Of a DNA stretch of 64,000 nt, positions 34,184 to 37,222 are shown piece by piece (position 1 is the first letter of the stretch; each line of letters starts with the position of its first letter). A program made the position numbers and the translations under genes. The stretch spans positions 1,408,001 through 1,472,000 of the forward strand of contig OY970325.1 of assembly GCA_963717145.1 (NCBI GenBank). The letters run 5' to 3'. Source of the DNA: an uncultured Armatimonadetes bacterium. GTDB lineage: Bacteria; Armatimonadota; UBA5829; DTJY01. The notes beneath the pieces are model-generated. The model ran no database searches and was not told the DNA's origin. It was given only the letters and a program-made list of their open reading frames with translations.

Positions 34184-34393
34184 TCAGAGCGGCACGATGT
34201 CCGACTGGGTGAGGACGAGGAGGCCGGATGCCTCGACGAGGGCGGTGACCTTCACGAAGGGGAGACCGTCGGGCGGGGCGATGCCGGGGAGATATGAGAC
34301 CGGGAGGTCGCCGGGGATGTTCGAGCCGTCGGTGAGGAAGAACTTGCCGGTGCCGTGCGCGGAGACCTTCCCGATCACCGTCACCGCAGCCAT
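34184..34393 (-). CDS. Small ORF or remnant: a single OB-fold-like domain
   Basis: VTVIGKV...FFLTDGS...VKVTA...TQSDI resembles the last domain of 31627-32493. Confidence 0.45.
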   Translation of the reverse strand: MAAVTVIGKVSAHGTGKFFLTDGSNIPGDLPVSYLPGIAPPDGLPFVKVTALVEASGLLVLTQSDIVPL

Positions 34394-35028
34394 CCCCCAT
34401 CAACCATCCCCTCCGCTGCCCAGATCGTGCCTCGGACGAGGAGTGGCGCGAACTGTTCGTGACGGCAGCACTCGGGCGTGTGGCCGAGGGCGAGGTAGTA
34501 CACCCTCCCCTGCCCCCAGCTCTTCGTCCAGATCACCGGCTCGGCCTTACCCTCGAAGAGCGCCGACGCCAGCACCATCACGCGCGGATCGTAGTCCATG
34601 ATGTACTGCTCGTCCTCGACGAAGAATTCGACGATGCCTTGGGTGATCGGGTGCTCCGAATCCACCACGCTCACCTGATACATCCTCGGCTTCGGATGAG
34701 TCGTGAAGAGCCCGCCGAGCATGCAGTGGAACTCGGCGCACTCCTTGAACGAGGCCGACGCCGAATGGATGCCGACGAACCCCTTCCCACCGGCGACGAA
34801 CCGCAGCATGCCGTCCCTCTGCGCGTCGGTCACCTCGCCTCGGGTGTAGTAGAGAGCCAACGCATCGTAGCGGTCCAACCCTCCGCCCTCGAGCACGGAC
34901 AAGTCGTCGTGGACGCGGGTCACGTCGAAGCGGCCATCCCCTCGAAGGATCCGCTCGATCTCGTCGCCACAGCCCAGGGAATCGTGGACGCCTCCACCGC
35001 TCAGTACAAGAGTCTTTATGCCTGCCAT
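34381..35028 (-). CDS. ThuA (glutamine amidotransferase-like) domain protein
   Basis: GGKGFVGIHSA, HPITQG, DEQY and GQGRVYYLALGH motifs. Confidence 0.88.
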   Translation of the reverse strand: MAGIKTLVLSGGGVHDSLGCGDEIERILRGDGRFDVTRVHDDLSVLEGGGLDRYDALALYYTRGEVTDAQRDGMLRFVAGGKGFVGIHSASASFKECAEFHCMLGGLFTTHPKPRMYQVSVVDSEHPITQGIVEFFVEDEQYIMDYDPRVMVLASALFEGKAEPVIWTKSWGQGRVYYLALGHTPECCRHEQFAPLLVRGTIWAAEGMVDGGWLR

Positions 35029-35113
35029 GACCAATCTCCCAACCGATGTAGTGCTTGACCGTTCGCAGCCAGAGCGATCTCACCGCTGCCAATCTCCGAC
35101 TTATCCGCGCGAT

Positions 35114-35129
35114 TGGCACGAATCTTGCA
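35114..35129 (+). promoter_or_regulatory. sigma54 (-24/-12) promoter
   Basis: TGGCACG-AATC-TTGCA, a full match to TGGCACG-N4-TTGCW. Confidence 0.75.
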
Positions 35130-35197
35130 GTAATACAGAGTATAGAGGGACTCGGCAGGCGATCCTGCCAGGGTCCTCAGGAGAAGGAGTGAGTTAA

Positions 35198-35287
35198 ATG
35201 AAGATCATCGCCACCCTGATTGCACTTGCCCTCGTGCTCTTCCTGGTCGAGACTGCTCAGGCCGTGACCACCTGGATCAGCTTCTAG
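35198..35287 (+). CDS. 29-aa small secreted peptide precursor MKIIATLIALALVLFLVETAQAVTTWISF
   Basis: RBS AAGGAG about 8 nt upstream, host-like codons, Sec signal peptide with AQA site. Below the ORF-track cutoff. Confidence 0.75.
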   Translation: MKIIATLIALALVLFLVETAQAVTTWISF

Positions 35288-35304
35288 CGGGAGGCCGCTG
35301 ACGC

Positions 35305-35331
35305 GGGAGGCCGTTGAAGACCTCCCCTACG
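35305..35331. repeat. GTAG-type REP, reverse complement of the element at 47242
   Basis: cgggaggccgttgaagacctcccctacg. Confidence 0.7.
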
Positions 35332-36097
35332 TTCTGAGGCCATTCAACACCTTCACCAGGTTATCGCAATAGGCACGGAGCGCGAGCACATCCGCGCCCA
35401 TCGCCAGGAACCGATAACCCATGTCCACGTATTCTTGCGCGTTCTCGGGGGTTGAAGTCGTCCCCGCGAACTTCCCATGCCTGAGGCACACATCGGCCAC
35501 GCGCTTGCGTGTTTCGATCAACTTCGGATGGCTGAAGTCGCCCGGCGCACCGATCCCCTGGCTGAAATCCGCCGGCCCGAAGAAGATGATGTCGATTCCC
35601 TCCAGTTGAGCGATCTCCTCCAGGTCATCCAGCGGCTCGGGATCCTCGATCTGCACCGCGAGGAATCTGTTTCTGTTCGTGAAGGCCAAATACTCCTGGA
35701 AGTCACCGCCGCAGTACTCGCCGTCTGCATTCCCGCTATCCACCGGCCGCCTTCCGATCGGATGGAAGCGCGTCATCCGCACGACGTTCCTTGCGTCTTC
35801 CAGGCTCATTATGTGCGGCACCATGATACCGGCTGCATCCATCTCCAGCGGCCTGATGTAGTCGCTGTATCCGCCCCGAGAGACGCGCACCATCACGTCG
35901 CAGTTCTGTGACTTGGCGGCATAGACCTGCTGCTCGACGACGGAAATGTCGTTCGGCACGTGCTCCATATCCGCCCAGATCGCGTCATATCCGGCCAGAG
36001 CAGCGATCTCGGCGGCACGCGCGCTCTCCAGGTTGAGCTTGAAGATGTTCGCTACTTCGCCTGCGCGAAGTCTATCAAGGATACGGCTTGTACGCAT
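35327..36097 (-). CDS. HpcH/HpaI aldolase family protein
   Basis: DMEH, GIMVPH, FHPIGRR, VQIE and FFGPADFS motifs. Confidence 0.88.
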   Translation of the reverse strand: MRTSRILDRLRAGEVANIFKLNLESARAAEIAALAGYDAIWADMEHVPNDISVVEQQVYAAKSQNCDVMVRVSRGGYSDYIRPLEMDAAGIMVPHIMSLEDARNVVRMTRFHPIGRRPVDSGNADGEYCGGDFQEYLAFTNRNRFLAVQIEDPEPLDDLEEIAQLEGIDIIFFGPADFSQGIGAPGDFSHPKLIETRKRVADVCLRHGKFAGTTSTPENAQEYVDMGYRFLAMGADVLALRAYCDNLVKVLNGLRT

Positions 36098-36133
36098 ATT
36101 CTCTACTCCCGACTGTAAGGTGAAGCGTTGGCT

Positions 36134-36204
36134 GGGTCACCGGAGTACAACTCCGGTGACAACAGGCGAGGAGGGTTGTCACCGGAGTTGTACTCCGGTG
36201 ACCC
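36134..36204. repeat. Inverted REP doublet
   Basis: gggtcaccggagtacaactccggtgacaac...gttgtcaccggagttgtactccggtgaccc. Confidence 0.9.
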
Positions 36205-36262
36205 GAGCCATCCGGCGTTATGTTAGGCGTACAGCCGGCTATTTCCTTGCTGACCTCCGAGT

Positions 36263-37222
36263 TCAGGCCATGCCCTTCTCGAGCCCGACCAGGTTCAGGA
36301 AGTCGTACTCGTGGACGAAACGGCGCAGATCATCCAACTTGGCGATCGCGAGACCGACGACCGTATCCGCCGCGCCATAGTACATCCAGACCTCATCACC
36401 GCGCTGAACGGTGCCGCATGTGAAGACTACGTTCGCAAGGAGACCGTGGATCTCATATTCCGCCTCCGGGGCAAATACCCATTCGGATGCGCGTCTGAGA
36501 ACCTTACGTGGATCGTCCTTGTCCAGGAGCGCCAGCCCGAGTCTGTATGTCGGCGATCCGGCAATCTCCTTAACACCGTGGAAGATAAGCAGCCAACCGT
36601 CGTCGGTCCTGATCGGAGGAGCCCCCACACCGACTCTGACACCGTCCCACCAGGGTCCGCCTCTTTCCGGGAGAAGCAGGCCGGGCTGCGTCCAACTGTC
36701 GAGGTCGTTGTACGACGTAGCGTACCAGATATGCTCCTGCCCGCCGGTCACCGGCCTGTGCAGCATGATCCACGAGCCGTCGAAGCACTGCGGAATCACG
36801 AGGGCGTCCTTATTGGTCGGAGAGAGCATGACCCCGAGCCGATTCACAGACTCGAAATCGGTGGTAGTCGCCAGTGCCACCGCCGGCCCGTATCGCGAAT
36901 ATGCGGTGTAGGCGATGACCCATTCGCCGGGACGGTACTCGGTGACCCTGGCATCTTCGCAGCCCCACTCCTCGAACGGGTTCTCCGGCTGGTCGGGTTC
37001 CAGTAGCGCCTTGTCCGAGATCCGCCAGTTATCGACGCCATTCGCGCTCCGAGCCACGCGTATGTGAGAGATCCCCTGCCTGTTCTCGATTCGGAGAAGC
37101 AAGATGACCTCTCCGTTGACCTCGACTGCGCCCGGATTCAGGACCGCATTCGCGCGGAGAGACAGCGTGCGTGGCGTGATCAGCGGGTTCATCCGGTGGC
37201 GAACAAAGATGTCTTTTTCCAT
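36263..37222 (-). CDS. GH130 glycosidase/mannoside phosphorylase
   Basis: NPGA, GCEDARV, YTAY, NKDA, LHRP, NVVF and YYGAAD motifs. Confidence 0.9.
   Translation of the reverse strand: MEKDIFVRHRMNPLITPRTLSLRANAVLNPGAVEVNGEVILLLRIENRQGISHIRVARSANGVDNWRISDKALLEPDQPENPFEEWGCEDARVTEYRPGEWVIAYTAYSRYGPAVALATTTDFESVNRLGVMLSPTNKDALVIPQCFDGSWIMLHRPVTGGQEHIWYATSYNDLDSWTQPGLLLPERGGPWWDGVRVGVGAPPIRTDDGWLLIFHGVKEIAGSPTYRLGLALLDKDDPRKVLRRASEWVFAPEAEYEIHGLLANVVFTCGTVQRGDEVWMYYGAADTVVGLAIAKLDDLRRFVHEYDFLNLVGLEKGMA

Follow-up and report, generated by a model that had tools for sequence, protein, structure and literature searches.

The window analysed here is a 64-kb stretch (64,000 nucleotides, nt) of the genome of an uncultured Armatimonadetes bacterium (G000; 5.37 Mb in a single contig, 60.6% G+C), and our subject is a small open reading frame (sORF) of 29 codons that lies behind a sigma-54 promoter at positions 35114-35331. 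An earlier note on this DNA, made from the letters alone, had read the locus as a regulated pre-peptide gene that would release the heptapeptide VTTWISF. According to our in silico analysis, the sORF is a real micro-gene that is conserved in related soil bacteria; its family, of 29-31 codons, is so far undescribed and lies outside the curated libraries searched. The elements named in the note (promoter, ribosome-binding site, reading frame, repetitive extragenic palindromic (REP)-like element and convergent gene) were all found in place, and the locus reads as follows.

34381-35034, minus strand: ThuA-family gene, divergent (Pfam PF06283, E = 1.2e-41)
35114-35129, plus strand: sigma-54 (-24/-12) promoter TGGCACGAATCTTGCA, an exact fit to TGGCACG-N4-TTGCW
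35147-35177, plus strand: hairpin GGGACUCGGCAGG...CCUGCC.AGGGUCCUC in the 5' untranslated region (UTR), predicted with ViennaRNA, which leaves the Shine-Dalgarno (SD) sequence free
35184-35189, plus strand: SD sequence AAGGAG, read from the sequence, with the ATG at 35198, 8 nt on
35198-35287, plus strand: the sORF, 29 codons, with the translated product MKIIATLIALALVLFLVETAQAVTTWISF
35198-35263, plus strand: leader of 22 codons, made of an MK n-region, a 15-residue h-region and a VETAQA c-region (A at -3 and -1)
35264-35287, plus strand: tail VTTWISF and TAG stop; cleavage by signal peptidase I (SPase I) after AQA would make the tail a mature heptapeptide
35288-35331, plus strand: REP-like palindrome, a partial copy and then a full copy (genome consensus CGGGAGGCCGTTGAAGGCCTCCCCTACG)
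35327-36097, minus strand: HpcH/HpaI-family aldolase gene, convergent (Pfam PF03328, E = 3.3e-30)

The promoter, with its GG at 35115-35116 and its GC at 35126-35127, was claimed as a full-consensus -24/-12 element, and it is indeed an exact match and the sole one in the window (1 site vs 0.01 expected; 1 of 100 shuffles matched). When one mismatch is tolerated, the same single match is obtained vs 0.67 expected, which is not significant. Transcription would start near 35138-35141. The AAGGAG claimed as ribosome-binding site is present at 35184-35189, and the frame at 35198-35287 encodes the 29 amino acids (aa) that the note had given; its length is below the usual gene-calling limits. The fold predicted with ViennaRNA for 35141-35215 has an energy of -24.8 kcal/mol, and the 5' UTR hairpin is kept in the close relative L062 and not in the other genera. 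Downstream, the core of the REP-like palindrome (35304-35331) occurs 134 times in the genome when up to 4 mismatches are allowed, and the palindrome likely forms the 3'-end hairpin of the sORF transcript; L062 and one metagenome contig lack its 16-nt partial copy. Since the gene that follows is the convergent aldolase gene of the minus strand, which ends at 35327, the sORF unit is monocistronic, as had been proposed. A crude scan of 34300-36300 found no sigma-70-like promoter and no canonical intrinsic terminator, and Rfam found no family on the sORF unit.

The note had named longer homologues, which would make the sORF a truncated remnant, as the result that would refute its reading. We found eight further distinct homologues of the product, all of 29-31 aa and with the same stop position to within one codon; there was no longer one among them, and G000 holds neither a paralogue nor a longer relative of the peptide. 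At the DNA level, the coding part had no counterpart in 40 relatives, where matches were limited to the promoter and the REP-like repeat. When the 53 genomes of the class were searched at the protein level with the 29-aa query, a 30-codon reading frame, MKVLATFLALIIIMCFVETAQAFSNWVAGF, was identified in the genomes G010 and G005 (E = 3.7e-4), which belong to another genus (g6) of the same family. The G010 locus has a sigma-54 site (TGGCATGGAATTTGCA), an AAGGAGG SD sequence, a GTG start and terminator hairpins past the stop, and its region has about 46% G+C, so that the DNA is strongly diverged while the peptide is retained.

Metagenomes were scanned with a degenerate DNA pattern, MK...ETAQA-xxx-W...F-stop, which forces some of the residues and does not require a sigma-54 site. 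Six of the 18 loci obtained encode family members, corresponding to five distinct sequences: among them are MKIIATLIALALVLFLVETAQAVSTWVGF in L062, MKIIATVIALILVLCFVETAQAVSTWIGVF in L063, MKFVATLVAFILVLCCVETAQAISTWFSGF in L052 (identical in L066) and, with a GTG start, KVLAIFLALITIMCFVETAQAFSNWIAGF in L065. The other 12 loci are out-of-frame chance matches, and so are all six loci that the same pattern gave in the genome collection from which records near the window genome had been removed. Because the pattern forces residues, 1.84 billion representative proteins were also searched with a profile, free of any such constraint. This gave three matches (E from 2.8e-14 to 1.2e-9; lengths 30, 30 and 31), namely MKVIATLLALTLIMVFVETAQAVSNWIGGF, MKLVGTFVAFILVLCFVETAQAISNGIGGF and MTKVLATFIALFIIMYFVETTQAFCNWFAGF (P0001-P0003), and no longer homologue. 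Altogether the homologues span genomes of 46% to 61% G+C.

In the alignment of the nine distinct sequences, K2, A9, V-E-T-x-Q-A and the C-terminal F are invariant (9/9), and the tail W is found in eight. All nine tails follow the pattern hydrophobic-S/T/C-T/N-W(G)-hydrophobic-small-(small)-F. Every sequence has A at position -1 and either A or T at position -3, so the A-x-A motif that the note had marked as an SPase I site is kept throughout, as T-x-A in one homologue. Pfam returned nothing for two of the three family peptides searched and only sub-threshold matches for the third (E at least 0.065), NCBIfam returned nothing for any of the three, and the ESM Atlas gave no usable match. We also considered several known classes of small product. 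A KdpF-like or other known microprotein was rejected for want of a Pfam match, a lipoprotein for want of a lipobox Cys, and a prepilin for want of a G-F-type site.

Purifying selection acts on the sORF, judging from its codon changes, and synonymous changes dominate in the leader. The congeneric contig L062 has 83.4% DNA identity to the window and is syntenic with it (heparinase-like, GH130, aldolase, sORF, ThuA), with flanking proteins that are 88-96% identical. Its sORF product shares 26 of 29 residues with that of the window, and all three changes fall in the 7-residue tail. The leader carries 3 synonymous and 0 non-synonymous codon changes, so that 0 of 22 leader residues vs 3 of 7 tail residues differ (Fisher p = 0.0096); this contrast is absent in the second close pair, L050 (G010) vs L065 (p = 1). 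Between the window and L063, a relative of L062, the leader shows 8 synonymous and 4 non-synonymous codon changes, and between L050 and L065 it shows 7 and 2, respectively. A soil metagenome run contains contigs that are about 93% identical over 35139-35289, and the three reading-frame differences listed there are all at third codon positions.

Sigma-54 control of the sORF had been proposed from the window alone, and the homologues bear it out. A site of the form TGGCA[CT]-N5-TTGC[AT] precedes the start by 43-70 nt at all eight homologous loci for which DNA is available, although the searches did not require one. By consensus match and by conservation the sORF promoter thus appears to be sigma-54-dependent. 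An SD-like purine run (AGGAG, AAGGAGG, GAGGGAG or GGGGG) also precedes the start in all homologous loci. Genes this small escape annotation, and here is one that is conserved together with a clear signature of enhancer-dependent transcription.

The promoter type places the sORF in a wider set of genes. G000 contains 25 sites of the form TGGCAC-N5-TTGCW; four, of the TTGCT type, lie in the flagellar region, and most of the TTGCA type precede monocistronic genes for proteins with a signal peptide. Of 12 proteins examined downstream of G000 sigma-54 sites, nine have a PEP-CTERM-like end when judged by eye, and six of these nine exceed the TIGR02595 cut-off. The 16-mer of the sORF promoter recurs at four other sigma-54 sites of G000, three of which precede PEP-CTERM genes. 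From these sites, the sORF shares its promoter class with the monocistronic PEP-CTERM surface-protein genes of G000. In proteobacteria, according to the part of the work of Haft et al. that concerns their promoters, PEP-CTERM genes form single-gene operons whose start codons are preceded, at a mean distance of 71 nt, by a sigma-54 motif (Haft et al., 2006; PMC1569441), and sigma-54 control of one PEP-CTERM gene has been demonstrated experimentally, as reported in the relevant section of Xia et al. (2023; PMC9850573). As far as these sources describe such genes, the sORF resembles them in being monocistronic, in its sigma-54 site tens of nt before the start, and in its putative N-terminal signal peptide, and with those of G000 it shares the 16-mer. 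It differs from them in that its product lacks a PEP-CTERM domain (TIGR02595 is unmatched) and has essentially no mature domain. The sORF may bear on how exosortase/PEP-CTERM surface programmes are coupled to envelope homeostasis.

As regards the regulators, two rpoN paralogues above the cut-off are present in each of G000, G010 and G005. Those of G000 lie at G000:C1:245048-246361 and 2168040-2169422, and one of them is in the flagellar cluster, where an enhancer-binding protein of its own and the TTGCT-type sites adjoin it. The sigma-54 sites of the PEP-CTERM genes, of the sORF and of the small RNAs described below are all of the TTGCA type, and this division of sites, together with the two rpoN genes, suggests two sigma-54 regulons that differ slightly in the -12 element. 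G000 encodes only three true enhancer-binding proteins (strong Sigma54_activat matches): one in the flagellar region, one with HTH_8, and one that consists of a receiver and an AAA+ domain without a DNA-binding domain. The last is encoded in L094 (G000:C1:3046000-3053000), where the gene of a 1084-aa GAF/PAS histidine kinase precedes it and that of a receiver-PilZ protein follows. It is a candidate for activating the entire TTGCA-type regulon independently of enhancers, with a link to cyclic di-GMP. Inspection by eye of 28 sigma-54 sites revealed no shared upstream activator motif; with an enhancer-binding protein that lacks a DNA-binding domain, such a motif may be unnecessary.

At least five sigma-54 sites are followed by no reading frame but by a short transcript with a 5' hairpin (CAGGUA...ACCUGG), a single-stranded stretch CAACAUCUUUUCUCCUUCC that is complementary to SD sequences, and a terminator. 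They are located in L096 (G000:C1:4125500-4126400), L097 (G000:C1:3764300-3765200) and L098 (G000:C1:4341100-4341600) and at G010:C17:19819 and G005:C33:18514, so the RNA is conserved in another genus; Rfam found no family for these transcripts. They look like a multi-copy family of sigma-54-dependent anti-SD small RNAs (sRNAs), which we take to be formally similar to the Qrr sRNAs.

The sORF was found in 3 of the 53 genomes of the class and 3 of the 401 sampled genomes of the phylum, that is, in two of the ten genera of the family, as well as in metagenome lineages. The profile search of the 401 phylum genomes matched only G000, G005 and G010. The next best match (E = 0.0028) was rejected, being a 58-aa frame of which only the hydrophobic part was covered. 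Scanning the 11 family genomes for a sigma-54 site followed by an MK start gave 24 matches and no further small hydrophobic reading frame. Across the homologues, the sORF occupies four genomic contexts.

Context 1 (window and L062): ThuA gene, sORF, aldolase gene
Context 2 (G010, G005 and L065): genes for five tandem PMT_2-TPR membrane proteins, sORF, gene for HtrA (Trypsin_2 and two PDZ domains)
Context 3 (L063): gene for a BamA-like Omp85 protein, with the sORF directly downstream
Context 4 (L052 and L066): URO-D-like gene, sORF

In L065 the HtrA frame stops after 176 residues, and the gene order is as in G010 and G005. G000 has HtrA paralogues with a single PDZ domain. The Omp85 protein of L063 is 47% identical to the single POTRA-Omp85 protein of G000. 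The BamA-like gene of G000 is itself preceded directly by a gene for an extracytoplasmic function sigma factor and stands with a Skp/OmpH gene (L109, G000:C1:4583500-4588500), a layout reminiscent of a sigma-E-type envelope regulon. We found no receptor, transporter or modifying enzyme that recurs across the four contexts, and in none of them does a gene for a cytoplasmic TPR/HTH receptor of the RRNPP type adjoin the sORF. For the peptide signal suggested in the note, with a receptor encoded elsewhere, we found no evidence. The same applies to its proposal of a precursor like those of ribosomally synthesized and post-translationally modified peptides (RiPPs): neither RiPP modifying enzymes nor a dedicated transporter were detected in the 20-52 kb region of the window or in the other three contexts, and without tailoring genes the locus is not a RiPP locus.

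The layout of the product is that of a signal peptide when judged by rule, with MK, exactly 15 hydrophobic residues and a polar ETAQA with small residues at -3 and -1, and it is kept family-wide. G000 encodes four SPase I paralogues, which would give it the capacity for cleavage, and it has an Omp85/BamA homologue, so that its cell is a diderm one with a periplasm. In E. coli, as described in the relevant part of the source, a 27-aa membrane protein is inserted post-translationally via the signal recognition particle and then SecYEG or YidC (PMC12719787). The reading that we prefer, with a probability of roughly 0.4, is that the sORF encodes a Sec-type pre-peptide that is cut by SPase I and releases a periplasmic ligand of 7-8 residues. 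Transcription of the sORF would require one of the few enhancer-binding proteins to activate sigma-54 RNA polymerase and, given the shared promoter type, would accompany that of the PEP-CTERM surface-protein genes. The pre-peptide would insert into the inner membrane after translation with its N-terminus inside, and SPase I would cut after the invariant V-E-T-A/T-Q-A. This would free in the periplasm a hydrophobic peptide of 7-8 residues with a free C-terminal Phe, VTTWISF in the window; the predicted cleaved tails have masses of 764-991 Da and all end in Phe. If it is cleaved, the peptide would be among the shortest products known of Sec and SPase I, and might serve a diderm lineage as a ligand in the periplasm or outside the cell. 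To our knowledge, linear peptide signals are essentially undescribed in such a lineage.

Several observations weigh against release of a ligand. The c-region residues E18, T19 and Q21 and the h-region residue A9 are invariant, while recognition by SPase I does not require such invariance and the signal peptides of the PEP-CTERM proteins of G000 have varied c-regions; this suggests that the part within the membrane has a function itself. Nor is the leader less conserved than the tail. Within the tail, the position two before the final Phe holds a hydrophobic residue in the 7-residue tails alone and S, A or G in the 8-residue ones, and W is replaced with G in one homologue. As to the partners, the sORF occurs in 3 of 11 family genomes vs 9 of 11 for the exosortase, which makes it an accessory and not a core part of the exosortase system. 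HtrA orthologues of five other genera have no sORF within 1.5 kb, and neither an sORF nor a sigma-54 site was found that close to the HtrA homologues of seven other loci (L112-L116, L105 and L106). Two of the four contexts do touch outer-membrane-protein biogenesis or quality control (HtrA and BamA), which is suggestive of a link to the envelope, but this was noticed post hoc. Finally, no public run contained more than 0.07 of the sampled words, and the sole RNA contig from the four runs compared with the locus (34948-35104, about 80% identity) stops short of the sORF.

The freed peptide would act as an envelope ligand, and its most concrete candidate target would be a PDZ-bearing protease of the HtrA/DegS type, for which it would be a C-terminal-Phe agonist; another factor that reads the C-termini of outer-membrane proteins (OMPs), as in MucE/AlgW, may be the target instead, or the peptide may serve as a diffusible cell-to-cell signal. 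We regard as speculative and rather doubtful the more specific claim that it is either a mimic of OMP C-termini that switches on an HtrA/DegS-type or OMP quality-control pathway, or an exported linear autoinducer; neither would have a precedent in bacteria of this kind. As a mimic, it would pre-emptively activate the HtrA/DegS pathway as PEP-CTERM export begins, and the sORF would be a minimal stand-alone MucE. In Pseudomonas aeruginosa, the small protein MucE activates the protease AlgW by docking its C-terminal WVF onto the PDZ domain, which turns on the alginate regulon, and DegS is activated by OMP C-termini of the form Y-x-F, according to the sections of PMC8545111 that deal with these systems. 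The sORF product would be like MucE, as described there, in being an encoded and putatively exported small product with a free aromatic C-terminus that ends in Phe and with a link to a surface or exopolysaccharide programme, and in one genus (g6) an HtrA-family gene lies next to the sORF. In contrast, MucE is longer and has no sequence similarity to the sORF product, whose mature part would count only 7-8 residues; the residues before the Phe of the 8-residue tails fit neither W-V-F nor Y-x-F; and the sORF appears to be under sigma-54 control, with the binding of its peptide to a protease only a candidate interaction. A complex prediction with the PDZ domains of the G010 HtrA and the whole 30-aa precursor (not the 8-mer) gave no answer (score 0.02, without controls), which speaks neither for nor against binding. 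When the tails were compared with the C-termini of 77 signal-peptide reading frames whose last residue is F, W or Y, a few SGF, GGF and VGF ends were found and no clear common motif.

As an autoinducer, the peptide would have species-specific tails such as VTTWISF and VSTWVGF. The precursors of RRNPP systems have about 20-35 aa, with an active part in the C-terminal 7-9 residues; their genes lie beside that of a cytoplasmic receptor, and processing is carried out by Eep, export by PptAB. The sORF product resembles the precursors of SHP/Rgg, ComS and the enterococcal inhibitor peptides, as far as the sources describe them, in being short and hydrophobic with a C-terminal part that would be the active one. 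RRNPP systems are placed in Gram-positive bacteria in the parts of the literature that concern them, whereas the sORF has a diderm host, an SPase I-like site, no adjoining receptor gene and a sigma-54 promoter. With no adjacent receptor and a diderm cell, the sORF is not an RRNPP-type system.

The conserved leader also fits a product that is never cleaved or that stays in the membrane, and we consider such a single-pass microprotein the main rival reading, somewhat less probable than the cleaved ligand. Its helix would lie in the inner membrane with the N-terminus inside, and A9, V-E-T-x-Q-A and the interfacial W/F would bind a membrane protein that belongs to the sigma-54 surface programme and modulate it, in the way of other small membrane proteins of bacteria. 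The absence of leader changes next to three tail changes between the window and L062 would be expected of it, as would the E, T and Q beside the hydrophobic stretch, invariant 9/9 beyond what SPase I recognition needs, and most characterised bacterial proteins of less than 50 aa are single-pass membrane proteins, according to the portion of PMC12719787 that treats them. The hydrophobic run, however, is short, with 15 residues, and behind it stands a textbook small-x-small site, at which cleavage by SPase I would be expected, and the neighbourhood, which differs across all four contexts, indicates no partner. The small single-pass inner-membrane proteins of Enterobacteria, such as YohP (27 aa), are comparable in size, in their one hydrophobic helix, in induction that is specific to a stress or condition and in post-translational insertion (PMC12719787); they have no sequence similarity to the sORF product and, as that source describes them, lack a conserved small-x-small site and a conserved short tail. 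If it is not cleaved, the product would add a sigma-54-controlled member to the regulators among small membrane proteins. That the peptide is instead membrane-active, a toxic or depolarising product like type I toxins or YohP whose sigma-54 induction slows or kills a subpopulation, for instance during matrix formation, seems to us improbable. It is short and the most hydrophobic of 12 small signal-like reading frames found in G000, it appears to be under tight enhancer-dependent control with a predicted structured 5' UTR in the window, and YohP depolarises E. coli, as stated in the section concerned (PMC12719787). Yet simple, crude sigma-70 scans of the window and of the G010 locus revealed neither an antisense promoter nor an antitoxin: the single minus-strand sigma-70-like site of the G010 locus (10215-10186) lies about 130 nt past the sORF stop, 1 site vs 1.5 expected from shuffles. 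Moreover, the strong SD sequence is unsequestered in the predicted fold, and a conserved A-x-A site followed by a C-terminal motif is atypical of such toxins.

It is very improbable that the frame is no gene at all but the decaying 5' end of a gene for a secreted (PEP-CTERM) protein under sigma-54 control, or a chance frame in a sigma-54-dependent non-coding RNA. G000 does have many sigma-54 promoters before signal-peptide proteins and before apparently non-coding transcripts. Against this stand the length of all homologues, 29-31 aa across genomes of widely differing G+C content, the mostly synonymous substitutions, and the absence of any paralogue or longer relative both in G000 and among the 1.84 billion proteins; a random 29-codon frame would stay open with a probability of only 0.2-0.4 per lineage. 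As a candidate in its own right, a PEP-CTERM remnant was rejected, no similarity having been found.

Some minor features of these loci deserve mention. Copies of the REP-like family CGGGAGGCCGTTGAAGGCCTCCCCTACG often stand in tandem or inverted clusters and are also present in the genome G001. In G010, the five tandem paralogous genes upstream of the sORF (L050, 1-9861) encode TPR-repeat proteins of 449-700 aa, an unusual expansion, and PMT_2 is among the best 25 Pfam families for only one of the five. Past the sORF of the same locus (L050, 10100-10201) and in the matching part of L065, about 80 nt are conserved between the first hairpin and a second strong terminator, possibly as a structured 3' UTR or a 3'-derived RNA. 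In the window itself, a long near-perfect hairpin at 36129-36209, between the aldolase and GH130 genes, gave sub-threshold matches to several miRNA precursor models and is probably a palindromic repeat or a bidirectional terminator.

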